From assembly GCA_000091205.1 (NCBI GenBank), contig AP006492.2: a stretch of 64,000 bases of DNA, one strand, 5' to 3'. Shown piece after piece: positions 1-44,086 of this stretch (positions are counted from its first letter, which is position 1; the number at the start of each line of letters is the position of its first letter). This DNA is from Cyanidioschyzon merolae (taxonomy: Eukaryota). The notes under the pieces were generated by a model, which was not told where the DNA came from, did no database searches, and worked only from the letters and a program-made list of their open reading frames with translations. A program made the position numbers and the translations under genes.

Positions 1-2250
1 GGAGACTCCGGCTCGTTCCATCTTCAGAAATGGAGCCTCGTGCGGGACCGTGTCAAAGGCCTTTTGAAAGTCGGTGAAGCATACGTAAGCTGGTTGTTGG
101 CCGCTAATGGAGCAACGTTGCACCCTTCAATGAGGGTCAGGGCATGGCTCATGCACTCCTCGTGGCTCCGGAATCCAGCCTGTTCTGGGACGAGGAACTT
201 GCGTTCCTGGAGGCCTCTCTGAGTCCGGTTCGTGGGAATGGCGCAAAGTAGCTTCATGATTGACGGGATGAGGCGCATAGTCCGGTAGTTGTTCATGTCT
301 GTGTGGGAGTCCTTTTTGAGGACCGGTACGACCTCGGCAGTCCTCCATACATCCGGGATGTACGCCTCTTCGAACATGCGTTGGATGAGCTCCACAAGGC
401 GTTTGCCTAAGCTTGTGTCAGATTCATCTGGTATTGATGGTGTCCCTGTTGTCCCGTCTTTTGGGGTCACCAGTTTCATCCACTCCGCAGGGATACCGTC
501 GATGCCAGGTGTTTTGCGGTTGCTTGAGCATAGCACGGTCCGAACAGATTCAGGCCAGAAGATTGGGTCGTTCCATTCCGGTACCGGTTCGAGGCGCGGT
601 AGTTCTGCAGCATATTGGTGCCAATAGATTCTGTCTTGGCAGTGCCCAGTTGCGTCTTCATGCAGCTCTGTGCCGTGGTCCGTCCAGGCCTCATTCACTG
701 AGGCACGCTCCGTCCTCAGCGCTTCCTCATAAACGACTGGTGTGAGCCCCAGGCACTTTTTTGGTGGGTCCAGTCTCGATCGAATGTAGCGCCAGGTCTC
801 ATCTTCGTTGGTGCTCTCTAGCATAGATTTCGCCAGGGAGGCGATTTTGCGGGTTCGATCCTCTCGTTTGTCTTCTCTGGAAAGTTTCTTCTTTCTTTTG
901 ATAGCTTCTTCATGTTGTGCCTGTAGCGCCGTTAGGACTGCCTTCGCTTCCTTGTCTCCGGCGTTGGCGCGTATGGCGGTGTGGTTGACGATCTGATAGA
1001 GTCGGTGGTGCTCGTCAATCCGGGTATTGGTACGTCGTTTCAGGCACTGAGGTTTGCAACTGTTGCGTTCTGGTGCAAGCAGTCCCAGCTCTCCGGCAAT
1101 CTTCTGATTCCCATCTACAAACTCGCGTGCCAATTGGTCTAAAGATTTGTATGCACGGCTTTTCGGATCTTCAGCGCTGTGAGTAGGTGACTTGGTTTGG
1201 CGACGGCTTTCTTGAGTTCCTGCTGGGGTGCTCTTTCGGGGACGACATGTGATGGGCTCGCTGGAGCCCCCGCCTGTGGGCTCGTTCGGGAGTTCTTCTT
1301 TCTATTCTTCTGTTTTTTTCTTGCTGGTCTACTTCTTCTTCGGGCTCTTTCCTGAGCTACATTCTCTGGTTATTTTGCATCTAGGTGGATCATGAGGTTT
1401 CTGTGTCTCCTTCTCCGTGTCTGGTTGGGTCTCTTTTCCTATTGTACAGTCCTCGACTTGTATCAGTTCTTCATTACTCTACTAGTAATTCGATATCTCG
1501 TAGTTCAATACCGAGGCGATCCCGCTAATATTCCATGATGCGAAACCTATCGAGTCGTAGCGCATAAGGGAATAGGAGTAACGCTGCGGTACTCGAGAGA
1601 TACGTTGTCGATTGAGATGCACCCTCCACGGGGTGTGTGAGAGCACATGCCACCAGTGCCTCCTGCATTCCAGTCGTTCACTGAGTGTCTGCCGCAGCGC
1701 TAGCGTAGAATCAGATGTACGCTAGTCAAGGTCGATTCGAATGCGACCTTTATCTTGCCCGACGCTTTAACCTCCCCTCAACAATTGGGAACAGTCTGCA
1801 AACCACCCTTTCAGCGGCTACGTATCCGCTCCCCAAACACATAGGCGGGCAAGCCGCTTATTCCAGCTTCGACCGCAAACATACTGCCAGCCGTCTTCAA
1901 AAGTCTCCGCCGAGACTTTTTCCAAAGTTGAGGTAGGTACCCAAGGTAGGAGATAAAACTGAGCCCGAGTCCGAGGATCGATCCAAGATTTGCGCCCGAA
2001 CCTGCAGCGTTGATTCGGGAGGGGCGGATGACTGATCAGGATTTTCGTCAACATTTTCTGGTGCTACTGCCGCCGCCCCTCCGTTCGTTGCGCGGTCAAG
2101 GTCCCTGGCGTGGGCTTCCTTCGCCGTCGCCCAAGCACCCCGCGTTAACCCACTTTCAGAGCTTCTCCGGAAAAACTAGACCTCTAAGGCGGGCGTGGTG
2201 TGTGGGTCTTTAAGATAGTTGTTCTTTAATAAATAGTTTGTGACTGGTTT
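1..2250 (-). mobile_element. LINE-like non-LTR retrotransposon, copy 1 (3' part lies beyond window start); RT ORF plus ~1.1 kb 5' leader
   Basis: Sequence 1..2250 is near-identical to 41141..43393 (copy 2), including the RT ORF and the long leader ending in '...taaatagtttg(t/c)gact(g/a)gtttgttttgtt'. Homology to copy 2 stops at ~2250. Confidence 0.6.
24..1133 (-). pseudogene. LINE reverse transcriptase ORF (partial; 1-nt indel near 130 shifts frame relative to copy 2)
   Basis: Translation carries RT motifs (GIDGIPAEW, VVPVLKKD, YRTMRLIPS...). Compared with the copy-2 ORF (40919..42274) it diverges after '...SHALTL' because of an indel. Confidence 0.55.
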
Positions 2251-2717
2251 GTTTTGTTATCGGTGTTTTTGTACCCGGCGTTTTGCTCACCACGACCAGA
2301 TCGACGCCGAGATATCTCGGAGATCGGCCAGTCTACTGACACGATGCGAATGCCGCCGTTGAATGGAAACGCGATCCTGATCAGTAGCGTGTTGTTCTAC
2401 TGGAAAAATTGGATTTCCGTTAAGGTCTTAGCAGAGTACAGTTTTTTAGTTCATTTTTCTTTCAAACCTCAAACAAGTGTGTTCAAGTTTTTTTTCGCAG
2501 TATATAACAGAAGCGTTCACAGAGCGTTGTTTTTCAAAAAAAAAACTAAAAAAGGAAAGCTATGAGAAAGCAAGTCCACGATCCTGGAGGCCCAGGGTCG
2601 CCGGCTGCCAGAAAAAAACGAAAAACAGTGCCGAGTCCAGAAGAAAAGGGAGAGAAGAAGAACCGAAAGGGGGAGGCCCTACGTTGAAGGCTGCAACAAA
2701 GACGACTTTACGACGAG

Positions 2718-4976
2718 ATGGTGGTGAAAACCTTCCTTCTTAAACATATCAAGGATCCGTGCAAGGAAAAGTTGCGAGACGCTATCAAAAAACGTGTCGA
2801 CTCGTACTCCAAGAGTATTGTCAAGGCGTCGTCAGTACTGATGCATTTGGTGAGGGAGATGTATCGCGACGTGACGCACATGGAAACAGTCGAGATTCCT
2901 GACGATTTTTTCGACAAGACGTTTATTCGTCACCTGATGCTTGGCACAGCGGAAGCGCTGAAGGAAAATATGCTAGTGCACGCCCTCCACGAAAACTTGG
3001 TGGAATTCCGCTTCGAAGGTAATCGATACAGGGGTGCCTCGGATATTTAGGCATACGGAGCGAAAAAGTACATCACGAGTCTGAAGAACCATTTGACAGT
3101 GAACCTCGAACGTTTTATGATACGCGCGGTGGGTACACTCTACCCGGGCATCTTTCGCAACGGAAAATGGGCGATTATCAATGGCATCATGAAAGATCGA
3201 AAGTATGAAGTTGAGATCGAGTTTGTCGATAAGAAGGCGTCACGCAGGAGCGCAAATGAAGCTTCTGTAATCCGTGCGGCTATCCAAGAGTATCGTGCAG
3301 TCCTGGGGCTGGCGAATTTGGCAGAAAATTTATCAGAGTTGAAAAAAGATAAGGAAAGATACTACCGCCTCATCCTGTGATATTTCGTGTTTCTGGACCG
3401 AGAGCTCGAACGCGAAGCGGAGATGAAGCTGAGTGAAGAGACAAATCAAGAGTGGGAGAGACGGAAGGCTTTCCTAATGGGTAAGCGCTTCAACGGCGTT
3501 CCAATGTGCAATATCAAGTCACATTTCGTGACTATCGATTCAGGCGTCCTTTACGGCATCATGAGGGAGATCTGTCCGGAGTTCGATGTGAGCAGGGAGG
3601 ACTTCATCGGTGAAAACCGGGAGACGTACTGGAAGAGTATCTTCGATTTCAAACGTCTCAAAGTCAGCAAACAAAAGGTATTTACTGGGTTGATCGAAAC
3701 CGATGGAGTAGCCACGTGTGTACTCTATCGGCGGTTGAAGAAAGATCGTCCAGTTCCGCCCTCGGCCGCGCCCGTCACGAGGGATGCAGAAAACAAAGAG
3801 GAGGATTCTGTGATGCAGGAGGTGGAGGATACCGAGTTTGTCGTTGACGTGACGAAGGATGAAGAAAACAAAGAGGAGCATCCTGCTACGCAGGAGGTGG
3901 AGGATAACGACCTTGTCGTTGACGTGGCGAAGGATGAAGATGAGAAGAAGGCGGATCCTTCGGCGCAGGAGGTGGAGAATAACGACTTTATGGTTGACGC
4001 GGCGAAGCATGAAGAAAACAAGGAGGCGGGTCCTGCGACGCAGGAGGTGCAGGAGAACGACTTGGTCGTTGGCCTTGACCCTGGGAGCACGACCATCCTA
4101 GCCATTGCTGCACCCAAGCGTGCGGAAGACGGTACTGACGGCAAATTACGTCAGAAAGACATGCGTGTGTTCAAGCTCTCGAATGCGAGATATTACCGGG
4201 AATCGGGAACCATGAATGCGAGGAAGAAAATTGAGACTTGGAATTCAGGAATAAAAGAGCACCTGGAAGCTATGAGCGAGGTGACGAGCCGAGGAGCGGA
4301 CTTTCGAGCTTTTCGGAAATTCATGGAAGTTCGTGTTGCTCATTGGGAGGCGCTGTTGGAGGAGTATACAAAGCCCGTGTGAGCTCGTCTGTGTATGAAT
4401 CTGTATTGTGGAAAGCAGCGTGCATTCGCGAACTTTTTCCATGAGTTGAGCGCCTCGAAAGAGGACAAGACTCAAAGGCTCGTCGTAGCGCACAGAGCGG
4501 TGCACTGGATGACCCAAAAAGGGACTCCGCCAGCTCCAACGACGAGAACGTACAAGGAGTGTGCACGGCGTTTTGTTACAATACCTGCAGACGAGTTCCG
4601 AACATCTTATACACACCATGAGCTGGGTTGTAAACTTCAGAGGGTCGAGATGAAAATGTGCCAGCGGAGCCCTAAGGACATAGCAAAGTACGGACCGCTG
4701 ACGGAGGAGCTAATGGAAAGGAGGGCGAAAGTTCGTGGACTCTTTGCATTAGTAAGTGCAACCAGTGATGGCAAGAAACGTATGGAGTTTGTGAACCGCG
4801 ACTTTAATGCTGCCATCAATATAACGAGATATGCGGTGCTGGAGACGAGACCTCCAGAGCAGACAAGAGAGCTCTTTGTTGAACAGTCACTAAAAGTTGA
4901 ACTATATGAGAAGAAATGGGAAGCAGTAGTGGATGGCCGTTCGAAAAAGACGGGGAGGCGTCTGCATGTTAGTTAA
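2718..4976 (+). pseudogene. Fanzor (eukaryotic TnpB / OrfB_IS605-like RuvC nuclease) ORF with three in-frame stops (TAG 3051, TGA 3381, TGA 4380)
   Basis: ORFs 2718..3050, 3093..3380, 3387..4382 and 4395..4976 are all in the same frame. Motifs: RuvC-I-like '[18 protein letters not shown]', 'IPADEFRTSYTHHELGC' (YTSQ-like plus degenerate zinc finger), and RuvC-III 'KRMEFVNRDFNAAINI' near 4780..4825. Confidence 0.55.
3780..4075 (+). repeat. ~72-nt tandem repeat (about 4 units) encoding acidic '[21 protein letters not shown]' inside Fanzor A, just upstream of RuvC-I
   Basis: Direct reading of protein 3387..4382. Copy B has 1 unit and copies C/D have 2. Confidence 0.6.
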
Positions 4977-5093
4977 TGACGTCTGCACTAGGGCGGGTTT
5001 CGCCGCCTCTACACCGCCGGTGACACCGTTTTTCTTTTGAAAGACGTTTGTTTCCAGGGGTGAAAGCGACAGAATCGGGACGTGCGTGCTGCC
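4977..5093 (+). ncRNA. Conserved structured non-coding 3' end of the Fanzor element (candidate omegaRNA scaffold / right end)
   Basis: 'ggcgggtttcgccgcc' hairpin, 'caccgccggtg' near-palindrome and the T-tract 'ccgtttttcttttg' are identical in copy B (reverse complement at 14707..14926) and partly conserved in C (26372..26463). Confidence 0.25.
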
Positions 5094-14671: not shown

Positions 14672-17205
14672 TATGCGTGTGTGTTTGCACGTGCACGCCC
14701 GACACCGCCAAACGTCTTTCAAAAGAAAAACGGTGTCACCGGCGGTGTAGAGGCGGCGAAACCCGCCTTAGACTAGACGTCATTAACTAACTTGCAGACG
14801 CCTCCCCGTCTTTTTCGACCGGCCACCCACTACTGCTTCCCATTTCTTCTCATATAGTTCCACTTTCAGTGACTGTCCAACAAAGAGCTCTCTTGTCTGC
14901 TCTGGAGGTCTTGTCTCCAGCACCGCTCATTTCCTTATATTGATGGCAGCATTAAAGTCGCGGTTCACAAACTCCATACGTTTCTTGCCATCACTGGTTG
15001 CACTTACTAATGCAAAGAGTCCACGAACTTTCGCCCTCCTTTCCATTAGCTCCTCCGTCAGCGGTCCGTACTTTGCTATGTCCTTAGGGCTCCGCTGGCA
15101 CATTTTCATCTCGACCCTCTGAAGTTTACAACCCAGCTCATGGTGTGTATAAGATGTTCGGAACTCGTCTGCAGGTATTGTAACAAAACGCCGTGCACAC
15201 TCCTTGTACGTTCTCGTCGTTGGAGCTGGCGGAGTCCCTTTTTGGGTCATCCAGTGCACCGCTCTGTGCGCTACGACGAGCCTTTGAGTCTTGTCCTCTT
15301 TCGAGGCGCTCAACTCATGGAAAAAGTTCGCGAATGCACGCTGCTTTCCACAATACAGATTCATACACAGACGAGCTCACATGGGCTTTGTATACTCCTC
15401 CCACAGCGCCTCCCAATGAGCAACACGAACTTCCATGAATTTCCGAAAAGCTGTAAAGTCCGCTCCTCGGCTCGTCACCTCGCTCATAGCTTCCAGGTGC
15501 TCTTTCATTCCTGAATTCCACGTCTCAGTTTTCTTCCTCGCATTCATGGTTCCCGATTCCCGGTAATATCTCGCATTCGAGAGCTTGAACACACGCATGT
15601 CTTTCTGACGTAATTTGCCGTCAGTACCGTCTTCCGCACGCTTGGGTGCAGCAAGGGCTAGGATGTTCGTGCTCCCAGGGTCAAGGCCAACGACCAAGTC
15701 GTTCTCCTGCACCTCCTGCGTCGCAGGAACTGTCTCCTTGTTTTCTCCATGCTTCGTCACGGGCGAAGCCGAAGGCATGATAGGATGATCCGCATTCAAG
15801 CGCCGACACTGTAAGCATATGGATACCCCATCGATATGGATGATCCCTGTGAATGCTTTTTTCGTGCTCGTATTGAGACGTTTGAAATAGAAGATAGTCT
15901 TCCAATGAGTCTCCCGGTTATCGCCGGTGAACTCTATCTGCCTTACATCGAATTCCAGACTGATCTCCATCATGATGCCGTAAAGGACTCTGGAGTCGAT
16001 CGTCACGAAGCATGACTTGACGTTGCACAACTGAAAGACGTTGAAGCACTTGCCCTGAAGCGCAGTCTTCCGTTTCACCGACTCTTCACGTTTTCCCCGC
16101 TCAGCTCCATCTACGCCTTGCGTTCGAATTCTCGGTTCAGGAGCACGATATAGCGCAGGATGAGGGGATAACATCTTTTTTCATATCTGATACCCTCTCT
16201 GCTCGATCGACCTGCCCCAAGACTGCACGATGCTCTTTAATAGCCGGACGGATTACAGAAGCTTCGTTTCTGCTTCGGCGTGACGTCTTCTCGTCGAAAA
16301 ATTCGATCTGCTGTTCGTGCTGGCGATAAGTCCTGATTTCATTGATGCTAGCCCACATCCCCTGGCGAGAGAGGTCGGGGTTCAGCGCAAACATAGTGCG
16401 TATCATGAAACGTTCGAAGTTCACGATCATATGGTTCTTCAGGTCCGTGAGGTACTTAATTGCCCCGCAGGTGTATATATTCGAGTCACGCTCGTGTCGA
16501 GTGCCGTCGAAGCGGAATTTGGAGCGATTTGCATGGAGGGCATGCGGTCGCTCAGTTTCCGTCGACGTTTCCTCTGTGCCAAGCCTCAGGTGACGAATAA
16601 AGGCCTGGTCGAAAAATTCTTCCGGAACCTGGACTGTTTTCATGTGCGTCACGTCCCGAAACATCTCCTTCACCAAATGCACTAGCCATGACGAAGCCTT
16701 TATAAAACTCATAGAGTACGACTCGACGCAGTTTCTAATGGCGTCTCGTAACTTTTCCTCGTACGGATCCTTGATATGTCGACGAAGACAGGCTTTCGCC
16801 ACCATCTCGTCGTACTGTCATCTTGCTCGCAGCCTTTGTCGTAGGGCCCCCTGCCTCAGCTTTTTCGTCTTTTCCAGTTCCTTTTTGCTCTGGCTGCCGG
16901 CGACTACAGCCCTCAAAGATCCTCCACTTTCATTTCCATAACTCTTCTTTTTTTATGTTTTTGAGCAAAAACACACTTTGAACGCTTCTGCTATAAACCG
17001 CGAATAGTCACTTGAATCCACTCCCATGAGGGTCAAAGCACAATTGAACTGAAAAACTCTACCTTGCTACGACTTGAAAGCAAATACAACTTGCACGTTA
17101 GAACTACAGATCAACGAATAGTCAGGATTGCGTTCCCTTTCAACGGCGATACGCGCGTCGTGTCTCATGGATGCCAGAGCTCTCGGGTGCGCGTATCGGC
17201 CACGC
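14672..17205 (-). mobile_element. Fanzor/TnpB-like element, copy B (inverted relative to A; boundaries +/- 40 bp)
   Basis: 3' segment 14707..14926 is the exact reverse complement of A 4977..5052. The 5' leader 16806..17205 is homologous to A 2285..2717 and to the C/D leaders. Confidence 0.5.
14927..16805 (-). pseudogene. Fanzor (TnpB-like) ORF, copy B (frameshift near 16150, in-frame TGA near 15366, extra stop after 'NAAINI')
   Basis: Proteins from 14927..15364, 15377..16174 and 16137..16805 match the A fragments. Same RuvC-I '[17 protein letters not shown]' and RuvC-III 'FVNRDFNAAINI'. Confidence 0.55.
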
Positions 17206-25195: not shown

Positions 25196-26404
25196 CTAGG
25201 TCGCGTAGAGTACTTCAGCAGGCGAGTAATCGTCAAAAGCTCGCGGTGAGCGCCGATGCTCCAGTCGCAAGTGCTGGTGCACGTCCGGCCATACCTGCAC
25301 ACAATTTGGTCCATACGCTTCAGCAACAGCATGAACAGCTGTGTAGTACACCTGGTCAGTACGTACGAAGCACTTTTCACGGTTCAGGTGCGGTTTGCAA
25401 ACGCGATCAACGGGAGCGGCAGCACCTAGCCATGGCCTCCGGAGCGACGTCTGAGAGGCTTCGCTCCAGTTCAGAGCCGGTTCAATAACGTCGTAACGCC
25501 ACCAGCAAGGCACTCGAACACTGCACAGGTTAATCGGTAGTTGTCTTTCAATGTCATCCAGCACATGCAGTACCGGGCTTTCCGGATTAGAGCGCAGCGC
25601 ATTTTCGCTCGGAACGATGTACTCGTCCACATCTGCGAAAAGAATCCATTTGAATATGCCGCGATTCCGCCACAAACAATCGTTCATGGCTGCAATCTGA
25701 ACATGATTCCAGTGCACGCCCTTTGGTGGACGAAATGGCCACGCTATGATCGATACATTCGCAGGCACATCGGCGAGTCGCTCCGTCAATTCATCCCTAA
25801 GCTCCATTATTCTGGAACCACAGGCATCCGGCTCATTGAGATAGATGAAAAAATTCCGAATGCCGACCCTTGTATGGTGTATGATCCACGACAGGAGGAG
25901 GCTCTGCGAAACGGAGCGTTCTACGTTGTTCGGCCGACGGTTCTCCTGAGACTCAGGGCGCAACCGCAGCATCGTCCAGGCAGCGAGATGTAACTGCTCG
26001 TTTGGAGCAGTTCCTTCGAAAGCATCGGCGTCTGGTTTGCACTGCAGAATGAGCACTTCGTTTTGCGGGTCTAGGCGTGGCGGGAGAACGCCACCGGGCG
26101 CACACCACGTCGCTGCTGCTTGCTCTACAGTGCGCCGGTCCAGGGGCCCGCGAGCGCTCAAGACCAGCGTTTCAAGACCGTCACGTGACCGGAACCTGTC
26201 AAGGACGCGTAGCTTCGCGTAGGAGGTGATTCCTGTAGTCTCCTGGGTAAAACGGCATGCTTCTAGTATGGAAAGCGTGCGCTCGAGAGCATCGCCCGAC
26301 CTGGAGTGAAGTAATACCAGGAGCGTCAGCAGCAGGACGCAACCGGACAGCAGTCTTCTCGGGAAACCTGTTCCAGACGCACCTCCGACACCAACAACAA
26401 ACAT
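25196..26404 (-). CDS. GT92 (DUF23) family glycosyltransferase, type II membrane topology
   Basis: N-terminal hydrophobic anchor 'LLSGCVLLLTLLVLL'. GT92-like block 'WPFRPPKGVHWNHVQIAAMNDCLWRNRGIFKWILFADVDEYIVP'. First ATG at 26404 (ORF-track start 26482 is TTG). Confidence 0.5.
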   Translation of the reverse strand: MFVVGVGGASGTGFPRRLLSGCVLLLTLLVLLHSRSGDALERTLSILEACRFTQETTGITSYAKLRVLDRFRSRDGLETLVLSARGPLDRRTVEQAAATWCAPGGVLPPRLDPQNEVLILQCKPDADAFEGTAPNEQLHLAAWTMLRLRPESQENRRPNNVERSVSQSLLLSWIIHHTRVGIRNFFIYLNEPDACGSRIMELRDELTERLADVPANVSIIAWPFRPPKGVHWNHVQIAAMNDCLWRNRGIFKWILFADVDEYIVPSENALRSNPESPVLHVLDDIERQLPINLCSVRVPCWWRYDVIEPALNWSEASQTSLRRPWLGAAAPVDRVCKPHLNREKCFVRTDQVYYTAVHAVAEAYGPNCVQVWPDVHQHLRLEHRRSPRAFDDYSPAEVLYAT

Positions 26405-28995
26405 CTCCCAAAAGAAAAACGTTGTGACCGCCAGTGGTGTACAGTAGTGGCGAGTGCTCCGCCTTAGACTAGACGTCGCCAACTGACGAGCTGATGCCTT
26501 CCAGTCTTTTTCGACCGGCCACCTACAACGGCTTCCAATTTTTTCTCATATAATCCCACTTTGAGTGGTTGTCCCTTAAAATTCTCTCTTGACAGCTGTG
26601 GAGGTTTTTTCTCCATCACCGCGCATCTCCTGATATTGATGGCGGTGTTAAAATCTCGGTTCACAAACTCCATACGTTTCTCGCCATTGTTGGTACTCAC
26701 CAATGCAAGCAATCCTCGAACTTTCGCCATCCTTTCCATCTGCTCCTCCGTCAGCGGTCCGTATTTTCTTATCCTCAGGGCTCCTCATGCACATTCCTAC
26801 CTCCACTCTCTGAAGTAGACACCCCAGCTCATGGTGTGTATACGACGTTCGAAACTCACCTACAGGTATTGTTACAAAGCGCCTTGCGCACTCCTTATAC
26901 GCACTCGTCGTTGGAGCTGGCGTAGTTCCTTTTTGGGTCTTCCAGCGCCCTGCTCCGTATGCTACTACGAGCCTCTGACTTTTTTTATCCTCCTTCAAGG
27001 CGCTCATCTGATTGAAAACGTTCGCAAATGCCCGCTGCCTCTCTCCGTATAGACTCATACGCAGACGAGCCCACCGGGGCATGGTATACTCCTTCCACAG
27101 TGCGTCCCAATGGGCAACGCGAACTTCCATGAATTTCCGAAAAGCAGTAAAGTCCGCTCCTCAGCTCGTGATCTCCCTCATAGCTTCGAGGTGATCCTTC
27201 ATTCCTGCATTCCACCTCTCATTTGTCTTCCTTGCATTCATTATATCCGATTCTAGACAGTATCTCGCTCTCGAGAACCTCAAAAGACGCATGTCTTTCT
27301 GAGGTAAGTTGCCGTCAGTACCATCATCCGCACGCTTGGGAGCAGCGATGGTTATGATATTCGTATTCCCAGGGTCCGCGCCGACGACAAAGTCGTTATC
27401 TTGCACCTCCTGCGTCGCAAGATCCGCCTCCTTCTTTTCTGCATTCTTCGCCGCGCCAACGAAAGTCGTTATCCTGCACCTCCTGTGCCGCAGGATCCGC
27501 CTCCTTCTCACATTCATGGTTCGTCACGGGCGCAGCCGAGGGCGGGACTGGACGATCTCTCTTCAACCGCCGATAGTGTATACACAAGGCTACTCCATCG
27601 GTATCGATCATCCCAGTGAGTACCTTTTGTTTGCTCACCCTCAGACGTTTGAAATCGAAGATATTCTTCCAGAACGTCTCCCGGTTTTCACCGTAGAATT
27701 CCTCCCTGCTAACATCGAACTCCGGACTGATCTCCTTCATGATGCCATGAAGGACTGCGGAGTCGATACTCACAAAATGTGACTTGATGGTGCACATCGG
27801 AACGATGTAGAAGCGCTTACCCATCAGGAAAGCCTTCCGTCTGTCCCAGTCTTCAGTTTTCCCCACTCAGCTTCATTTCTGCCTTGCGTTCGAGTTCTCG
27901 GTCCAGAAACACGAAATAACATAGGATGAGGCGATAGTATCTTCCCTTATCTTTTTCAACGCTGATATCTTGTCTGTTGGATTCGGCAGCCCCATGACTG
28001 CACGGTGCTCTTGTATATCCGCACGGATGACGGAGACCTTATTCGTGCTCTGGTTTGACGCCTTCTTGTCGACAAATTCGACGTCATCTTCACGCTTGCG
28101 ATCGTTCGTGATGCCATTGATAATCGCTGATATTCCTTTGGGACAGATGCCCGGGTAGAGTGCAAACAAGGCGCGTATCATGTAACGTTCGAGGTTCACT
28201 GTCAAATTGTTCTTCAGGTTCGCGGTATACTTTATCGCCCCGTATATGTAAATACCCCGGTCACCGCTTTATCGATTACTCTCGAGGCGGAATTCCGCCA
28301 AGTTTTCGTGGAGGGCATGCACTGGCTCATTTTCCCCCGCGCTTACTCTGTACCAAGCATCAGCTGACGAATAAACGTCGCATCGAAAACGCCGTCCGGG
28401 AACCTCGACCGTTTCCATGTGCGTCACTTCGCGATACATCTCCCTCGCCAAATGCATCAGTCCTGACGAGGCCTTGACAATACTCTTGGAGTACGAGTCG
28501 ATACGTTTTTCGATAGCGTTTCGCTAGTGTTCCCTGTAAGGATCCTTGATATGTTTAAGAAGAAAGGTTTTCACCAGCATCTCGTTGTACGGTTGTAGTT
28601 CTTGCGGCCATCGACTTGGGATATCCCCTTTTTGCGTTTTCTTCTTATGCTGTTCTTCTGAACTCGGTACTGTTTTTTTCTTTTCTGGCAGCCAGCGACA
28701 CTGGGGCGTCAGGATCGCCGACTTGCTTTTTCATAACATCCTTTTTTTGTTTTTTTTTGAAAAGAACGCTCCATCAACGCCTCTGATATAGACCGCTAAA
28801 TATCACTTGGATAAACTAAATTGAGCGTTGAAACATAATTGACCTGAAAAGTGTACTCTGTTATGACTTTAACGAATATACAACTTGTAATTGAGAGCAA
28901 CACGCTCAAGATCGCGATCGCGTTTCCCTTCACCAACGACATGCGCGTGGTGTCTCATACCTGCCAGATATGGAGGTGCGCGTATCGACCGCTAT
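26372..28995 (-). mobile_element. Fanzor/TnpB-like element, copy C (near-identical to copy D)
   Basis: ORF fragments 26464..26739, 26648..27130, 27161..27517, 27396..27866, 27873..28205 and 28269..28457 match the Fanzor protein. 5' leader ends ~28995 where LINE sequence begins. Confidence 0.5.
26464..28583 (-). pseudogene. Fanzor (TnpB-like) ORF, copy C (multiple frameshifts and stops)
   Basis: '[18 protein letters not shown]' (RuvC-I), 'EFRTSYTHHELGC', 'RMEFVNRDFNTAINI' (RuvC-III). Has TGG (W) where A/B have the TGA stop. Confidence 0.55.
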
Positions 28996-30380
28996 AATCC
29001 CTTGGCACACGGACTCGAACTCCAAATACCCTCGACAGAAGGTATAGCAGCAGGCTGCCGGGTACGTATATGGGCCAAAGGGCCCGCCATGCGCACCTCT
29101 TTGAGTCGGATTTTCATGCAGACCCCTACGCACCTCAAGAACACTTGGACGAAATTGACGCAGATTGGGCTGAAGCGCCTATTAGACGAACATACGCTCC
29201 CCAATCGTTCCCCAGGAATGTACAAGGCTCCCGCCGCCTCAAGCGAACGGTCCAAACAACAATATGGGAACGTAGACACGGAACCAGTCGCGCCAGTAAC
29301 GCCGGCTTGATCCTATACCGGAGCTACAACCTAGCATACACATGCAAGTACTGGTGGGAGGCGCTGGAATTCCCGGGACTTGCTCGAGGTACCCAGTGGC
29401 TCGCCAAAATCCGCGTTGGTGGCTTCTGGCTAGCGGCACCGGCTCTAAGCCGTATAGGGACACTGGAATCGCACTGGGAGTCACACTGTCCCTGCTATCG
29501 AGACGATAACCCCGAGACGCTGACATATTTAGGCTTACAGTGCCCGCGCTGGAAGCAGGAGCGCAGCGAGCTCCTTGAAGGACAGCAGCAGCTGGGCATC
29601 ACCATGATATCCGAGGGCCGGACACTCACTTTGAGAGCAGCACTGGCAACTGATGGTCCGCTAACAGATCCTCAGCGCTCATTAGTGGCGAACAAACTCA
29701 CATGCTACCTTCCAAGCGGAAGGTCCAGCGGATCGGATGCGCACACGGGCCCAGTGCTCTCTGCGCCTACCTTCTGTATGGGTGTCAAACACAAACCCGC
29801 ATTGCCAACCGACGACAACGCATTCCATGCATGATCACGAAAGAGAGAGGCGGCTCCCACGATATATCCTAACAGTCAAGTTTCTCCAGCGTGTCGAGCA
29901 GCGAAGACAAGCCTGCATCCGCAGACTGTCCGAGCACACACTGACGACGAGACCCGATTCTACGTCGGGTGAAGCGCACCTTGAGCCGACGCCCTCTGGG
30001 GTATAGAAAAGCCGTTCTGTCTCCATGATGCATCTGTACCAAAGGTAAAGACGCTATTGCGGACAATTAGGACAGGTTCTGGGCACACGATAGGACGTAT
30101 GAGATGACCAGAATATCCGAGATGAAGGATAGGTAATTTGACGTGGAGGTACGGGGGTTGATGGATACCCCACCGCGCACTGTAAAAAAATAACGCAAAA
30201 AGTAAGAAAAGAAAAATGCGCACAATCGGAGAACGCTGGCCCAAGTAAACGCGTTGTCCGTGAAAAAGGACTCATCGATGCCGGCAGGCGTGCAGGCAAT
30301 CAGGCAGGCGGCAATCTCAGCCACAGAATGCGACGGCGCGAGCGCACGTCCTTCCCGGGGCAATAAGCGGCGCCTTTCGT
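28975..30380 (+). mobile_element. LINE-like retrotransposon, copy 3 (5'-truncated: end of RT ORF, C-terminal Cys/His ORF, ~300-nt 3' UTR)
   Basis: 28891..29834 ORFs match copy 2 39551..40400 in inverse orientation. 30067..30363 matches 39076..39318 (3' UTR). Confidence 0.6.
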
Positions 30381-36551: not shown

Positions 36552-39110
36552 GCTCCTCCGCGGCACCCCACGCAACGCGCCAACAACGCCGTTCTGAACT
36601 CGAACGACGTCGAACGTGTACTGTATTGGCGACCAGTGCTCTAGACAAGAAGTCTCCAACTGATGTGCAGAGACCTCTCAGTTTTCTTGGACCGGCCACC
36701 TACTACGGCTTCCAACCTTTTCTCATATAATTCCACTTTGAGCGGTTGTCCCTTAAAATTCTCTCTTGTCAGCTGTGGAGGTTTTTTCTCCATCACCGCG
36801 CATCTCCTGATATTGATGGCGGTGTTAAAATCTCGGTTCACAAACTCCATACGTTTCTCGCCATTGTTGGTACTCACCAATGCAAGCAATCCTCGAACTT
36901 TCGCCATCCTTTCCATCTGCTCCTCCGTCAGCGGTCCGTATTTTTTTATCCTCAGGGCTCCTCATGCACATTCCTACCTCCACTCTCTGAAGTAGACACC
37001 CCAGCTCATGGTGTGTATACGACGTTCGAAACTCACCTACAGGTATTGTTACAAAGCGCCTTGCGCACTCCTTATACGCACTCGTCGTTGGAGCTGGCGT
37101 AGTTCCTTTTTGGGTCTTCCAGCGCCCTGCTCCGTATGCTACTACGAGCCTCTGACTTTTTTTATCCTCCTTCAAGGCGCTCATCTGATTGAAAACGTTC
37201 GCAAATGCCCGCTGCCTCTCTCCGTATAGACTCATACGCAGACGAGCCCACCGGGGCATGGTATACTCCTTCCACAGTGCGTCCCAATGGGCAACGCGAA
37301 CTTCCATGAATTTCCGAAAAGCAGTAAAGTCCGCTCCTCAGCTCGTGATCTCCCTCATAGCTTCGAGGTGATCCTTCATTCCTGCATTCCACCTCTCATT
37401 TGTCTTCCTTGCATTCATTATATCCGATTCTAGACAGTATCTCGCTCTCGAGAACCTCAAAAGACGCATGTCTTTCTGAGGTAAGTTGCCGTCAGTACCA
37501 TCATCCGCACGCTTGGGAGCAGCGATGGTTATGATATTCGTATTCCCAGGGACCGCGCCGACGACAAAGTCGTTATCTTGCACTTTCGGGGTCACAGGAC
37601 CCGCCTCCTTCTTTTCTGCATTCTTCGCCGCGCCAACGAAAGTCGTTATCCTGCACCTCCTGTGCCGCAGGATCCGCCTCCTTCTCACATTCATGGTTCG
37701 TCACGGGCGCAGCCGAGGGCGGGACTGGACGATCTCTCTTCAACCGCCGATAGTGTATACACAAGGCTACTCCATCGGTATCGATCATCCCAGTGAGTAC
37801 CTTTTGTTTGCTCACCCTCAGACGTTTGAAATCGAAGATATTCTTCCAGAACGTCTCCCGGTTTTCACCGTAGAATTCCTCCCTGCTAACATCGAACTCC
37901 GGACTGATCTCCTTCATGATGCCATGAAGGACTGCGGAGTCGATACTCACAAAATGTGACTTGATGGTGCACATCGGAACGATGTAGAAGCGCTTACCCA
38001 TCAGGAAAGCCTTCCGTCTGTCCCAGTCTTCAGTTTTCCCCACTCAGCTTCATTTCTGCCTTGCGTTCGAGTTCTCGGTCCAGAAACACGAAATAACATA
38101 GGATGAGGCGATAGTATCTTCCCTTATCTTTTTCAACGCTGATATCTTGTCTGTTGGATTCGGCAGCCCCATGACTGCACGGTGCTCTTGTATATCCGCA
38201 CGGATGACGGAGACCTTATTCGTGCTCTGGTTTGACGCCTTCTTGTCGACAAATTCGACGTCATCTTCACGCTTGCGATCGTTCGTGATGCCATTGATAA
38301 TCGCTGATATTCCTTTGGGACAGATGCCCGGGTAGAGTGCAAACAAGGCGCGTATCATGTAACGTTCGAGGTTCACTGTCAAATTGTTCTTCAGGTTCGC
38401 GGTATACTTTATCGCCCCGTATATGTAAATACCCCGGTCACCGCTTTATCGATTACTCTCGAGGCGGAATTCCGCCAAGTTTTCGTGGAGGGCATGCACT
38501 GGCTCATTTTCCCCCGCGCTTACTCTGTACCAAGCATCAGCTGACGAATAAACGTCGCATCGAAAACGCCGTCCGGGAACCTCGACCGTTTCCATGTGCG
38601 TCACTTCGCGATACATCTCCCTCGCCAAATGCATCAGTCCTGACGAGGCCTTGACAATACTCTTGGAGTACGAGTCGATACGTTTTTCGATAGCGTTTCG
38701 CTAGTGTTCCCTGTAAGGATCCTTGATATGTTTAAGAAGAAAGGTTTTCACCAGCATCTCGTTGTACGGTTGTAGTTCTTGCGGCCATCGACTTGGAATA
38801 TCCCCTTTTTGCGTTTTCTTCTTATGCTGTTCTTCTGAACTCGGTACTGTTTTTTTTCTTTTCTGGCAGCCAGCGACACTGGGGCGTCAGGATCGCCGAC
38901 TTGCTTTTTCATAACTTCCTTTTTAAGTTTTTATAAATCAGCCCTCCGTGAACGCTTCTGTTATATACTGAGAAAAACAATCGAATATTTTCACTTGAGG
39001 GTTGAAACACAATCGAACTGAAAACTATACATGCCTATGAAGTTAACAAAAATACAACTTTGACATTAGAGCTACATGCTAGATATCAAGATCACGTTTC
39101 CCTTTAACGG
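36552..39110 (-). mobile_element. Fanzor/TnpB-like element, copy D (5' leader truncated at ~39110 by LINE copy 2)
   Basis: 36641..38700 is essentially identical to 26464..28520 (copy C). 3' end is more diverged than A/B/C. Confidence 0.5.
36641..38760 (-). pseudogene. Fanzor (TnpB-like) ORF, copy D (frameshifted)
   Basis: ORFs 36641..36916, 36825..37307, 37338..37694, 37573..38043 and 38050..38382 match copy C. Confidence 0.55.
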
Positions 39111-39550
39111 CGGCATGTTTTTCATTAACAACGCGTTTACTTGGGCCAGCGTTCTCCGATTGTGCGCATTTTTCTTTTCTTACTTTTTGCGTTATTTTTT
39201 TACAGTGCGCGGTGGGGTATCCATCAACCCCCGTACCTCCACGTCACATTACCTATACTTCATCTCGGATATTCTGGTCATCTCATACGTCCTATCGTGT
39301 GCCCAGAACCTGTCCTAATTGTCCGCAATAGCGTCTTTACCTTTGGTACAGATGCATCATGGAGACAGAACGGCTTTTCTATACCACAAAGGGCGTCGGC
39401 TCAAGGTGCGCTTCACCCGACGTAGAATCGGGTCTCGTTGTCAGTGTGTGCTCGGACAGTCTGCGGATGCAGGCTTGTCTTCGCTGCTCGACACGCTGGA
39501 GAAACTTGACTGTTAGGATATATCGTGGGAGCCGCCTCTCTCTTTCGAGA

Positions 39551-40321
39551 TCATGCATGGAATGCGTTGTCGTCGGTTGGCAATGCGGGTTTGTGTTTGA
39601 CACCCATACAGAAGGTAGGCGCAGAGAGCACTGGGCCCGTGTGCGCATCCGATCCGCTGGACCTTCCGCCTAGAAGGTAGCACGTGAGTTTGTTCGCCAC
39701 TAATGAGCGCTGAGGCTCCGTTAGCGGACCATCAGTTGCCAGTGCTGCTCTCAAAGTGAGTGTCCGGCCCTCGGCTATCACGGTGATGCTCAGCTGCTGC
39801 TGTCCTGCAAGGAGCTCGCTGCGCTCCTGCTTCGAGCGCGGGCACTGTAAGCCTAAATATGTCAGCGTCTCCGGGTTATCGTTTCCGCAGCAGGAACAGT
39901 GTGACTCCCAGTGCGATTCCAGTGTCCCTATACGGCTTAGAGCCCGTGCTGGTAGCCAGAAGCCACCAACGCGGATTTTCGCGAGCCACTGGGTACCTCG
40001 AGCAAGCCCCGGAAATTCCAGCACCTCCCACCAGTACTTGCATGTGTATGCTAGGTTGTAGTTCCGGTATAGAGTCAAGCCGGCGTTACTGGCGCGACTG
40101 GTTCCGTGTCTACGTTCCCATATTGTTGTTTGGACCGTTCGCTTGAGGCGGCGGGAGCCTTGTACATTCCTGGGGATCGATTGGGGAGCGTGTTGTCTCC
40201 TAAGAGGCGCTTCAGCCCAATCTGCGTCGATTTCATCCAAGTGTTCTTGCGGTGCGTTCGGGTCTGCATGAAAATCCGACTCAAAGAGGTGCGCGTGGCG
40301 GGCCCTTTGGCCCGTATACAT
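39551..40321 (-). CDS. LINE C-terminal ORF with Cys/His motif, overlapping the RT ORF end in another frame
   Basis: 'ESHWESHCSCCGNDNPETLTYLGLQCP'. The same overlap arrangement is present in copy 3 (29070..29834 vs 28891..29310). Confidence 0.5.
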   Translation of the reverse strand: MYTGQRARHAHLFESDFHADPNAPQEHLDEIDADWAEAPLRRQHAPQSIPRNVQGSRRLKRTVQTTIWERRHGTSRASNAGLTLYRNYNLAYTCKYWWEVLEFPGLARGTQWLAKIRVGGFWLPARALSRIGTLESHWESHCSCCGNDNPETLTYLGLQCPRSKQERSELLAGQQQLSITVIAEGRTLTLRAALATDGPLTEPQRSLVANKLTCYLLGGRSSGSDAHTGPVLSAPTFCMGVKHKPALPTDDNAFHA

Positions 40322-42274
40322 GCCCGGCAGCCTGCTGCTATCGCTTCTATTGAGAGTATTTGGAGTTCAAGTCCGAGTGCCAGCGCGGTGGTTGCCCTGC
40401 TCTGCATTGAGCATCCAACAACAACGAGTCTCATTGCCCCGTTGGCGGCTGTCTGCGGACGCGAGGCATTTGTGTGCTTCATGCCGCACCACTCAGCACC
40501 CCAGGTCGCAGGCTGGGTGATACACATCCTTAGTGCCCTCGTACGAATTGCTATGCGGATAGAGGGGTCGGATGGGAATGAGCGTGCGATCGCTGTACCT
40601 CTATGCATCTTGGCGATCATCTCGTCGACGTGTGCCTTTTCGTCGAGCGTCGGCGTGAGACCGACCCCCAGGTAGCGATATTTTTCCACGATCGGGATTT
40701 CCGGATTCTGCAACCGCCACGAGCGATTGCGAATGCTCTGCGAGTCTCCATGGATGACCATGACGCCGCACTTCGATGCTCCTATGCTCATCTCCCAGCG
40801 ATCGGCCCAGTCGCTGACTTGTTGCATGCTAGCCGCAAGCGTTTCAGGGGCGGGTGCCAACAGCACGACATCGTCCGCAACTAGACGGCCTGCGAGGCGG
40901 TTCCTATGTGAGGGCTCCTCATCGGGCATCTCCACAGTCTATCCACGGCACCTCAAGCCCGTATTGTCTGCAGTTGTTCAGCAGATCGTTGATGAAGATG
41001 TTGAAAAGGAGCGGGGATGCGCGCTCGCCCTGCCGCAGTCCACGGCGGATTCTTCTGGAAGGGGTTCTTGAGCTGTCGCCCAGTCGGATGCGCATCCATG
41101 AGTCTGCATAGAGCGCACGGAAGAACGCTAAGCACTTTCCGGAGACTCCGGCGCGTTCCATCTTCAGAAATGGAGCCTCGTGCGGGACCGTGTCAAAGGC
41201 CTTTTGAAAGTCAATGAAGCATACGTAAGTTGGTTGTTGGCCGCTAATGGAGCGACGTTGCACCACTTCAGTTAGGGTCAGGACATGGCTCATGCACTCC
41301 TCGTGGCTCCGGAATCCAGCCTGTTCTGGGGCGAAGAACTTGCGTTCCTGGAGGCCTCTCTGGATCCGGTTCGTGGGAATGGCGCAAAGTAGCTTCATGA
41401 TTGACGGGATGAGGCGCATAGAGCGGTAGTTGTTCATGTCTGTGTGGGAGTCCTTTTTGAGGATCGGTACGACCTCAGCAGTCCTCCATACATCCGGGAT
41501 GTACGCCTCTTCGAACATGCGTTGGATGAGCTCCACAAGGCGTTTGCCTAAGCTTGTGTCAGATTCATCTGGTATTGATGGTGTCCCTGTTGTCCCGTCT
41601 TTTGGGGTCACCAGTTTCATCCACTCCGCAGGGATACCGTCGATGCCAGGTGTTTTGCGGTTGCATGACCTTAAGAGGGTCCGGACAGATTCAGGCCAGA
41701 AGATTGGGTCGTTCCATTCCGGTACCGATTCGAGGCGCGGTAGTTCTGCGGCATACTGGTGCCAATAGATTGGGTCTTGGCAGTGCCCAGTTGCTTCTTC
41801 ATGCAGCTCTGTGCCGTGGTCCGTCCAGGCCTCATTCACTGAGGCACGCTCCGTCCTCAGCGCTTCCTCATAAACGATTGGTGTGAGCCCCAGGCACTTT
41901 TTTGGTGGGTCCAGTCTCGGTCGAATGTAGCGCCAGGTCTCATCTTCGTTGGTGCTCTCTAGCATAGATTTCGCCAGGGAGGCGATTTCGCGGTTTCGAT
42001 CCTCTCGTTTGTCTTCTCTGGAAAGTTTCTTCTTTCTTTTGATAGCTTCTTCATGTTGCGCCTGTAGCGCCGTTAGGACTGCCTTCGCTTCCTTGTCTCC
42101 GGCGTTGACGCGTATGGCGGTGTGGTTGACGATCTGATAGAGTCGGTGGCGCTCGTCAATCCGGGTATTGGTACGTCGTTTCAGGCACTGAGGTTTGCAA
42201 CTGTTGCGTTCTGGTGCAAGCAGTCCCAGCTCTCCGGCAATCTTCTGATTCCCATCTACAAACTCGCGTGCCAA
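40075..42274 (-). CDS. LINE ORF encoding reverse transcriptase (two overlapping ORF segments, frame change near 40919..40935); no AP-endonuclease domain recognisable
   Basis: 'FIDFQKAFDTVPHE', 'LRQGERASPLLFNIF', 'LVADDVVLLAP' (FADD-box equivalent); only ~120 aa N-terminal to the RT. Confidence 0.6.
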
Positions 42275-44086
42275 TTGGTCTAAAGATTTGTATGCACGGC
42301 TTTTCGGATCTTCAGCGCTGTGAGTAGGTGACTTGGTTTGGCGACGGCTTTCTTGAGTTCCTGCTGGGGTGCTCTTTCGGGGACGACTTGTGATGGGCTC
42401 GCTGGAGCCCCCGCCTGTGGGCTCGTTCGGGAGTTCTTCTTTCTATTCTTCTGTTTTTCTCTTGCTGGTTTGCTTCTTCATCGGGCTCTTTCCTGAGCTA
42501 CATTCTCTGGTTACTTTGCATCTAGGTGGATCATGAGGTTTCTGTGTCTCCTTCTCCGTGTCTGGTTGGGTCTCTTTTCCTTTTGTACAGTCCTCGACTT
42601 GTATCAGTTCTTCATTACTGTACTGGTAATTCGATATCTCGTAGTTCAATACCGAGGCGATCCCACAAATATTCCATGATGCGAAACCTATCGAGTCGTA
42701 GCGCATAAGGGAATAGGAGTAACGCTGCGGTACTCGAGAGATACGTTGTCGATTGAGATGCACCCTCCACGGAGTGTGTGAGAGCACATGCCACCAGCGC
42801 CTCCTACATTCCAGTCGTTCACTGAGTGTCTGCCGCAGCGCTAGCGTAGAATCAGATGTACGCTAGTCAAGGTCGATTCAAATGCGACCTTTATATTGCC
42901 CGACGCTTTAACCTCCCCTCAACAATTGGGAACAGTCTGCAAACCACCCTTTCAGCGGCTACGTATCCGCTCCCCAAACACATAGGCGGGCAAGCCGCTT
43001 ATTCCAGCTTCGACCGCAAACATACTGCCAGCCGTCTTCCAAAGTATCCGCCGAAATTGTTCCCAAAGTTGAGGTAGGTACCCAAGGTAGGAGATAAAAC
43101 TGAGCCCGAGTCCGAGGATCGATCCAAGATTTGCGCCCGAACCTGCAGCGTTGATTCGGGAGGGGCGGATGACTAATCAGGATTTTCGTCAACATTTTCT
43201 GGTGCTACTGCCGCCGCCCCTCCGTTCGTTGCGCGGTCAAGGTCCCTGGCGTGGGCTTCCTTCGCCGTCGCCCAAGCACCCCGCGTTAACCCACTTTCAG
43301 AGCTTCTCCGGAAAAACTAGACCTTTAAGGCGGGCGTGGTGTGTGGGTCTTTAAGATAGTTGTTCTTTAATAAATAGTTTGCGACTAGTTTGTTTTGTTG
43401 TTTTTTTTTTGTTTTTTTCCGCACGACGATTTCTCTTTTTTGGTTACGAAGAACGTTCCATACACCACCGCCGTGCGATCATGGCGGCGTTTCATTGGTT
43501 GCGGATTGAACCGCCTCCGCGTCGTTGCACCATTCGATTCGAAACGTAGGGCATACGCGACGCCTGTTCCCGTCGGATGGGGACGTGTCGCCGGGCCGGT
43601 GCGGGTACCGCCCCGGGGATGTCGGCACCCAGACCCCGCGAACGGGGACGCAGGAGCAGTTCCCTCGAGCGGCCCCGCGAAATCAACAGACGACCATCGA
43701 TGCGTAATACGTGGCGTAAATCAGGTATGCAACCGATCGAAAGGATACCAAGTTACGACGGCGACGGTTTATTCACTGACGCCTTCTCCAGACCTTGGCG
43801 TTTTCCTGCTTCAATCCAGTTTAGACAGGGCGTTAGAGTTTTCACGGAGGGAACCTCGTCTATTCGGACCAGTCTGCTCTCTTTTTGGAGGGACAGGTCA
43901 AGATCCAGCGTTTTCCTGGCGTGTTGTGTTTGGGAGTGCGGAGCGCTTTCTGCTTGTGCAGTGGACGAAAGCGGCTTTTGGTTGTCTCGTCACTTTGGAC
44001 GCTACTGGAGAATAGAAGTCACTCGCTGTCTTCTACAGCTAGGAAACGCACTTATGTGATTTTATATTTCACTTAATAGGCAAATA

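Follow-up and report, generated by a model that had tools for sequence, protein, structure and literature searches.

The right-end module of CMe-1A, a degenerate Fanzor1 element of Cyanidioschyzon merolae, is most likely a relic of an omegaRNA scaffold

Cyanidioschyzon merolae is a thermo-acidophilic red alga and a genetically tractable model. We analyzed a 64,000-nucleotide stretch of chromosome 10 of strain 10D (the window), in which six host ORFs correspond exactly to the proteins CMJ300C-CMJ311C. BLAST searches of the region against the window revealed four degenerate copies of the Fanzor1 element CMe-1A, here called A to D, the positions of which are given in Table 1 together with those of the other features. 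LINE-like non-LTR retrotransposon copies lie nearby, and one of them abuts copy A by its 5' end at 2258. Window positions 1-2258 are 97% identical to 41141-43399; this 2.26-kb duplicate of the upstream flank of A was considered as an empty site and rejected, as it is the 5' part of the LINE. A dTDP-glucose 4,6-dehydratase ORF (54851-55981, minus strand) is identical to the C. merolae proteins BAM80401, BAM80649 and BAM81944. Since a single ORF matches three separately numbered proteins, it fits a duplicated, probably subtelomeric region, as does the cluster of transposable elements in the window. No tRNAs were found in the window.

Table 1. Positions of the CMe-1A copies, their 3' modules and neighboring features (window coordinates unless a locus is named).
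Feature	Coordinates	Strand	Basis
Copy A	2338..~5062	+	BLAST against the window
Copy B	17164..~14702	-	BLAST against the window
Copy C	28954..~26388	-	BLAST against the window
Copy D	39116..~36564	-	BLAST against the window
Copy A, degenerate Fanzor1 ORF	2562..4976	+	translation; motif alignment to PpFz1 and SpuFz1
Copy A, SL-a, predicted 7-bp stem: AGGCGTC (4956-4962) with GACGTCT (4978-4984)	4956..4984	+	folds
Copy A, SL-b, predicted: GGCGG (4992-4996) with CCGCC (5003-5007), loop GTTTCG	4992..5007	+	folds
Copy A, SL-c, predicted long terminal stem-loop	5012..5062	+	folds, tail analysis, hairpin-variant simulation
Copy A flank, candidate 15-20-nt guide site if the module is an omegaRNA scaffold	5063..5080	+	inferred by analogy with SpuFz1
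Copy B, 3' module: SL-a 14803-14775, SL-b 14767-14752, SL-c 14748-14702	14702..14803	-	folds
Copy C, 3' module, with T-rich (v1) apical hairpin 26423-26400	26388..26498	-	folds
Copy D, 3' module, diverged	36564..36675	-	folds
ORF-less ~125-nt 3' module	L009:924-1043; L021:371-487; L055:2875-2972 (also L065)		
LINE-like non-LTR retrotransposon copies with reverse-transcriptase ORFs	24-2258; 39330-43399; 28990-30259	-; -; +	RVT_1, E=1e-18

Each of the four copies contains one long frame of ~750-800 codons, which encodes the Fanzor and is the sole ORF of the element. The frame of copy A has a KKRK motif at its N-terminus and three RuvC-like residues, D at 4077-4079 (GLDPG, within VVGLDPG), E at 4593-4595 (DEFRTS) and D at 4800-4802 (NRDFNAAINI); it is interrupted by in-frame stops at 2685, 3048, 3378 and 4380 and terminates with TAA at 4974-4976. 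The frames of B, C and D are broken by stops or frameshifts, and intact, expressible Fanzor ORFs number 0 of 4 in the window. Single-sequence PDB searches returned no match, unlike a profile of 25 family members (A6), which matched the structures of PpFz1 from Parasitella parasitica (9cf0, E=9.7e-17) and SpuFz1 from Spizellomyces punctatus (8gkh, E=7e-9). In this profile, the split RuvC D/E/D motifs are invariant or nearly so and align with their PpFz1 and SpuFz1 counterparts. Because of these matches to solved Fanzor1 proteins and the identity of the family with CMe-1A (below), the initial annotation was correct in assigning the ORF to the TnpB/Fanzor type, and sequence comparison identifies the window protein as a bona fide Fanzor1. 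Pfam searches with the window ORF pieces and with homologues gave no match; a C-terminal TNB/zinc-ribbon domain (PF07282) was detected in 4 of 25 relatives and in none of the CMe-1A proteins searched, and the CMe-1A sequence has no paired CxxC motifs.

Within the ORF of copy A, positions 3773-4071 consist of four tandem 75-nt repeats (81% match) that encode an acidic 25-aa unit. The repeats sit immediately before the RuvC-I strand, each unit ending in a sequence that nearly repeats the beginning of the RuvC-I motif, and the number of units ranges from 1 to at least 5 across family members.

The window family is CMe-1A, which Bao and Jurka (2013, PMC3627910) described as a Fanzor1 element of ~3 kb with ~150 copies of ~80% identity, without terminal inverted repeats and with target-site duplications undetermined or undetected. 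The organism, the scale of the copy number, the ~80% identity and the ~3-kb length agree between CMe-1A/TE-N2_CMe of that study and the window family, as does the lack of inverted repeats and target-site duplications; our own search for inverted repeats in the element found none. The published account of CMe-1A is older than the discovery of omegaRNAs and contains no description of the 3' module, of where it ends or of how it folds. For comparisons across the family, we collected 80 related loci from metagenome contigs and two more. These provided 60 distinct 3' ends, of which 47 remained at <95% identity, and the 39 with an intact end region were aligned with MAFFT (39 non-redundant copies). 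A single ORF among the 82 loci was close to intact (L002:6091-8259 / L004:3351-5519); it encodes 722-752 aa, has all three RuvC motifs and stops at …ENFIG, ~26 codons short of the usual C-terminus. Because this ORF ends early, the last ~80 nt of the "ORF" of the other copies, in the SL-a region, may matter more as RNA than as coding sequence for protein; alternatively, this copy may itself be defective.

The segment downstream of the ORF of A (4977-5093) had been described as conserved, structured and identical between A and B over ~80-115 nt. Our comparison showed that the segment is indeed shared by the two copies but is near-identical rather than identical, with 70 of 74 bases matching after the stop codon of A (4977..5050), and that the range proposed for B (14707..14926) takes in ~144 nt of ORF. 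Copies C and D share the segment in part, as reported, with ~70% identity and indels in C and ~56% identity in D. The idea of special conservation did not hold up: the match between A and B is the end of a 1,048-bp stretch over which the two copies are 97.3% identical (A 4003..5050 = B 15756..14709), so that it reflects recent descent, duplication or gene conversion and not constraint, and in a profile along the element the mean pairwise identity of the 3' region (0.70) was not above that of the ORF (~0.8). The 5' halves of A and B are 72.6% identical (2338-3846 vs 17164-15688), a mosaic pattern pointing to gene conversion or recombination between the two copies, which lie ~10 kb from each other and are oppositely oriented. 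Both copies also carry a TGG-to-TGA nonsense change at 4380 and an early TAA stop.

Our results show that this segment belongs to the non-coding module at the right end of CMe-1A, a Fanzor1 element that is present in many copies and lacks terminal inverted repeats. In sense orientation, the module occupies the 3' end of the Fanzor ORF and extends to the right end of the element (4950-5062). In copy A, 4950-5062 is predicted to fold into three stem-loops (-45.6 kcal/mol, z=-3.4); the z-scores of the whole-module folds were -3.1 for B, -2.1 for D and -1.3 for C, and the antisense strands were 11-15 kcal/mol weaker. The first of the stem-loops, SL-a, spans the stop codon in copy A and is an optional 5' part of the module; its helix (helix 2 of the alignment) was 82% paired and gave no significant covariation signal. 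Most family members have an ORF that is 15 nt longer than that of A and extends to the TAG at A 4989-4991. From this consensus stop to the right end there are 71 nt, or 74 nt with the TAG (4989-5062), and the stop-to-end distance ranges from 71 to 86 nt. The 74-nt segment of A contains SL-b and SL-c and folds at -34.3 kcal/mol (z=-4.2), and the z-scores of its equivalents were -4.5 (B), -2.5 (L041) and -4.7 (L064). The fold prediction that had been proposed as a check gave a shape of two or three stem-loops, and the module extends from about 4950 (or 4989) to 5062.

The individual hairpins named in the initial annotation fared differently. The first, 'ggcgggtttcgccgcc', is SL-b; it was borne out by its GGCGG/CCGCC pairing, the GGCG/CGCC core of which is found in 33-39 of the 39 non-redundant copies with a loop of variable length. 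The second, 'caccgccggtg' (5012-5022), is palindromic in these two copies only, A and B, with the others reading CACCGCTGGCG, CACTGCCGGCG and similar, and it is not a conserved hairpin but one strand of the long basal stem of SL-c. This stem is rich in G-U pairs and joins ~5012-5025 with 5049-5062, e.g., CACC at 5012-5015 with GGTG at 5059-5062; in copy B, ACACCGCC and GGCGGTGT form a perfect 8-bp basal stem below an apical hairpin at 14732-14713. The apical hairpin of A consists of CGTTTTTC (5027-5034), a TTTT loop and GAAAGACG (5039-5046). In copy C, the 3' arm of this hairpin has three substitutions, all of them compatible with G-U pairing, and the tail reads TTGGTGT at 26394-26388. The apical hairpin of copy D is of the majority type (v2), in which CGTCGTTC pairs with GAACGGCG (36609-36587), and the tail of this copy ends with GGGGTG at 36564.

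The T-rich tract 'ccgtttttcttttg' had been suggested to be a Pol III terminator or a part of the scaffold. It is present in copy A and lies in a stem-loop, forming the 5' arm and the loop of the apical hairpin, but it is not conserved, since 28 of the 39 copies have instead a CGTTCGA-CTT-TCGAACG apical hairpin without a T-run. Because most family members lack it, the T-tract is not a conserved terminator, and we rejected the Pol III assignment: the run is confined to one subfamily and buried in a stem, and a terminator upstream of any guide start would halt transcription before the guide.

We defined the right end of the element from the 39 non-redundant copies. Homology had been reported to decay only ~40 nt beyond the shared segment. 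Plain, strong homology among copies does stop, fading at 5050-5053, but a GT-rich, semi-conserved tail of 12-16 nt that belongs to the element continues beyond this point, so that the element ends at ~5062 rather than at 5052 or 5093. The apical hairpin closes ~16 nt ahead of the terminus, and these 16 nt are 70% G+T and 9% A, vs a balanced composition in later windows. Pairing of these nucleotides with the segment that immediately precedes the apical hairpin gave -10.1 kcal/mol, vs approximately -6.2 kcal/mol for the following three 16-nt windows, and pairing of the tail was better than that of the distal windows in 32-33 of the 39 copies (p about 1e-5). The tail TTTGTTTCCAGGrGTG is common to A, L039/L015 and L082, which are at different loci, and the tail TTTGTTGTTGGTGT is common to C and L041. 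Because copies at different loci share tails, the tail must travel with the element, and the right end of A, which was set by comparison with L039 and L082, lies at ~5062 (…GGGGTG); the sequence beyond is specific to each copy.

The complementarity between the tail and the 5' strand of the basal stem also raises the idea that the tail is not carried by the element but is target DNA, chosen by G-U-tolerant pairing with a variable internal segment (A 5012-5025), which would act as a bridge-RNA-like or IS608-like "internal guide" for the insertion site in addition to any Fanzor guide. We regard this as extremely improbable. The 5' segment of a copy was only weakly more complementary to its own tail than to those of other copies (permutation p=0.09), and the occurrence of the same tail with different internal segments in A, L039 and L082 leans against it.

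Fanzor1 proteins tested to date all use the 3'-end region of the element as guide RNA (PMC10432273, PMC11423790, PMC10312701). The omegaRNA scaffold of SpuFz1 is ~75 nt long and forms two stem-loops, followed by a variable extension of 14-15 nt (Saito et al. 2023, PMC10432273; structures 8GKH and 9CEU-9CEZ). The C. merolae module resembles it in its predicted fold and in the 71-74 nt that separate the consensus stop from flank-derived sequence, and both systems contain ORF-less copies of the RNA segment ("ghost" loci in S. punctatus, upstream modules here). The two have no sequence similarity. Spu-1 elements, unlike CMe-1A, have inverted repeats, and their TAM is CATA. Evidence for the SpuFz1 RNA comes from small-RNA-seq, RNP purification and cleavage assays (PMC10432273), whereas the C. 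merolae module is a prediction from sequence. Cryo-EM of three Fz1 complexes showed a 7-bp SL1 followed by one stem-loop (SpuFz1, PpFz1) or three (GtFz1) and then the guide (PMC11423790), and the PpFz1 omegaRNA has the same layout as predicted for the C. merolae module. In Chlamydomonas reinhardtii, the CreHNuc guide RNA was found by small-RNA-seq inside the 3' UTR of Helitron-type elements (Jiang et al. 2023, PMC10312701). These elements are likewise highly conserved at the 3' end, variable or truncated in their 5' parts and accompanied by extra ORF-less copies of the RNA; they are recognizable Helitrons, whereas the C. merolae element, seen only as DNA sequence, is unclassified. A literature search found no report of a C. 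merolae omegaRNA.

The same arrangement was found in a distant relative of CMe-1A with ~33% protein identity (L084-L089). Four independent insertions of this relative have a sharp right end exactly 74 nt past the stop codon, and these 74 nt are predicted to fold into a 6-bp hairpin and a long terminal stem, with the final nucleotides of the element as the 3' strand of the stem (z=-2.3); the architecture matches that predicted for the CMe-1A module, with no sequence similarity to it. In the wider group of contigs (L084-L093; JGI contigs Ga0620986_01890 etc.), the 624-aa Fanzor1 relative (P0209) is encoded directly 3' of a gene for a 296-aa DDE_3 (IS630/Tc1-like) transposase, and the identical protein occurs at several sites, with sharp element ends (GTTATTCTCAACCC… to …GGCGGAGTATA) and no evident inverted repeats. 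These contigs carry primase (AEP_C962R, D5_N) and Bro-N genes and are therefore probably from large DNA viruses.

The omegaRNA (reRNA) of the bacterial nuclease TnpB in ISDra2 and other IS200/IS605 elements has its scaffold at the 3' end of the nuclease gene, extending over the right end and the subterminal hairpin there, and the guide that comes after the scaffold derives from the flank. ISDra2 and other IS200/IS605 elements resemble CMe-1A in having neither inverted repeats nor target-site duplications. ISDra2 differs in that it is bacterial and is partnered with a TnpA Y1 transposase, of which the CMe-1A element has no counterpart. It differs from the C. merolae module also in its scaffold, which includes a pseudoknot and extends much further into the ORF.

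The left ends of CMe-1A copies were heterogeneous, with at least 5 different 5' contexts joined to a constant 3' end, and an attempt to derive a TAM from them gave no single motif, the ends being too heterogeneous. A left end at GGGCTCGATG… was rejected, since this sequence is always directly 3' of another copy of the 3' module. In L009, L021 and L055/L065, a second copy of the module lies ~970 nt upstream of the Fanzor start, with no Fanzor coding sequence before it, and its homology to the 3' module begins at AGGTGG/GGAAGCGTCTGCAC, just upstream of SL-a. This ORF-less module ends a stretch of shared non-Fanzor sequence of at least 1 kb and is followed 0-8 nt later by GGGCTCGATGTAYGGGTTAGGCTC…, which runs for ~970 nt to the Fanzor start codon; the arrangement could represent a longer, composite element that has a module at each end, two elements joined head-to-tail, or a "ghost" element of the S. 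punctatus kind. Pairs of Fanzor copies in the same orientation, ~3.7-3.9 kb apart and head-to-tail, were also observed in several metagenome contigs, with 3' ends at 2558 and 6423 in L057, 1072 and 5012 in L059, and 6456 and 10188 in L054; in L057 and L005, what follows the apical hairpin leads directly into GGGCTCG….

These variable left ends and the head-to-tail junctions, in which the 3' tail is directly followed by GGGCTCGATG…, speak for a role of the module in DNA, as a right-end cis-element whose subterminal hairpin would be the recognition or termination signal of a single-stranded-DNA transposase (rolling-circle/Helitron-like or IS200/IS605-like), with the RNA fold being incidental. 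The lack of terminal inverted repeats and of detectable target-site duplications is consistent with this, as is the precedent of the C. reinhardtii Fanzors that ride Helitrons with constant 3' and variable 5' ends (PMC10312701). Furthermore, the apical hairpin of most copies is palindromic, with Watson-Crick pairs throughout, and would also form in DNA, and selection for the hairpin as such is supported (see below). However, the element encodes a Fanzor alone, with no Rep/helicase or HUH ORF, its 3' termini read GGTG(T) rather than the CTRR of Helitrons, which have 5'-TC...CTRR-3' termini, and the basal stem, which needs G-U pairs, is far weaker when folded from the opposite strand. We consider a purely DNA-level role rather unlikely, and note that a DNA end and an omegaRNA scaffold are compatible, the right end of IS200/IS605 elements serving both roles.

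The proximity of LINE-like elements, which adjoin A, C and D and abut the Fanzor 5' region at several loci, together with the variable 5' ends of the Fanzor copies, could also suggest that the module is a SINE-like tail for the LINE reverse transcriptase, or else an mRNA 3'-end signal such as a terminator or a stabilizing stem-loop. With its 3' end (…TTGTCMATGAAAAAA), the LINE directly adjoins the 5' region of copy D, and likewise that of several metagenome Fanzor copies, both elements having the same orientation. Mobilization through a 3' tail shared with the LINE was rejected, because this LINE end has no similarity to the module and lacks both its hairpin and its GT-rich tail; the Fanzor copies have no A-rich tail, and the T-run is subfamily-specific and lies inside a stem. 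We therefore view a function as a 3'-end signal or LINE substrate as very unlikely.

Our tests for selection on the fold gave mixed results. Compensatory base changes in the hairpins, which would have been expected of a conserved RNA, showed no excess: in a column-wise analysis of helices P2-P5 in the MAFFT alignment of 39 copies, 80.6% of cells were paired, equal to the shuffled mean of 80.6%, double changes in pairs numbered 9 vs 7.1±1.9 in shuffles, and departures from Watson-Crick pairing were 53 G-U vs 54 A-C, as expected under neutrality, with the v1 hairpin alone leaning to G-U over A-C (9:1). RNAalifold found almost no consensus structure in this alignment (-0.67 kcal/mol), chance helices rich in G and U dominated a brute-force search for covarying ones, and Rfam searches at gathering and permissive thresholds yielded nothing relevant. 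Since nearly all copies are dead and decaying, covariation and conservation tests have little power in this family. The sole positive covariation signal came from the two apical hairpin subfamilies, which differ at 9 of 29 positions and both form 10-11-bp stems in a shifted register; simulations gave P values of 0.04 and 5e-5 with random substitutions and 0.006 and 0.004 with the same changes at permuted positions. In addition, in 37 of 39 copies the fold of the sense strand was more stable (-19.6 kcal/mol) than that of the antisense strand (-13.5 kcal/mol; p=9e-8), an asymmetry that is partly an effect of composition, since the tail is GT-rich. The register-shifted hairpins, the sense-strand bias and the existence of the module as a separable unit favor a selected structure in once-active lineages.

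The neutral result of the covariation tests, the identity of the region being not above that of the ORF, the A/B similarity explained by the 1-kb 97% tract and the overwhelming predominance of pseudogenes among the copies are what would be expected if the module had no specific function, past or present, but were the 3' UTR of a dead transposon family with fortuitous hairpins and similarity by descent. Opposed to this are the strongly negative z-scores (-4.2 to -4.7), the persistence of the apical hairpin through 9 substitutions and a register shift, the same architecture and 74-nt size in a relative without sequence similarity in this region, the duplication of the module as a unit without the ORF, and the use of exactly this 3'-end region by all Fanzor1s tested. 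The absence of any function thus appears quite unlikely to us.

Altogether, the position, strand, size and predicted shape of the module fit Fanzor1 omegaRNAs, as the initial annotation had proposed, although covariation and conservation lend the proposal no support. We conclude that the module is most likely a relic of the family's omegaRNA scaffold, with a probability of approximately 0.6. In active members, a sense transcript, either the 3' UTR of the Fanzor mRNA or a fragment processed from it, would fold into the small GC hairpin SL-b and then into the long terminal stem-loop SL-c, the 3' strand of which would be the last 12-16 nt of the element; the 7-bp SL-a, overlapping the last codons, may precede them. 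The folded module would be bound by the Fanzor, and transcription would continue for 15-20 nt into the flank, the sequence of which would act as guide. Since the four ORFs in the window are broken, the modules found here would be relics, or at best substrates for a Fanzor encoded elsewhere.

A gene followed by its guide is the expected arrangement, here extended to one more lineage, and the main gain is the corrected anatomy, with an element end at ~5062 and a T-run that is the arm of a hairpin. If the omegaRNA assignment were confirmed, CMe-1A would gain a defined omegaRNA and right end, which would allow the reconstruction of an active, possibly thermotolerant RNA-guided nuclease, and a search for its TAM and a test of movement by an element without inverted repeats or target-site duplications would become possible.
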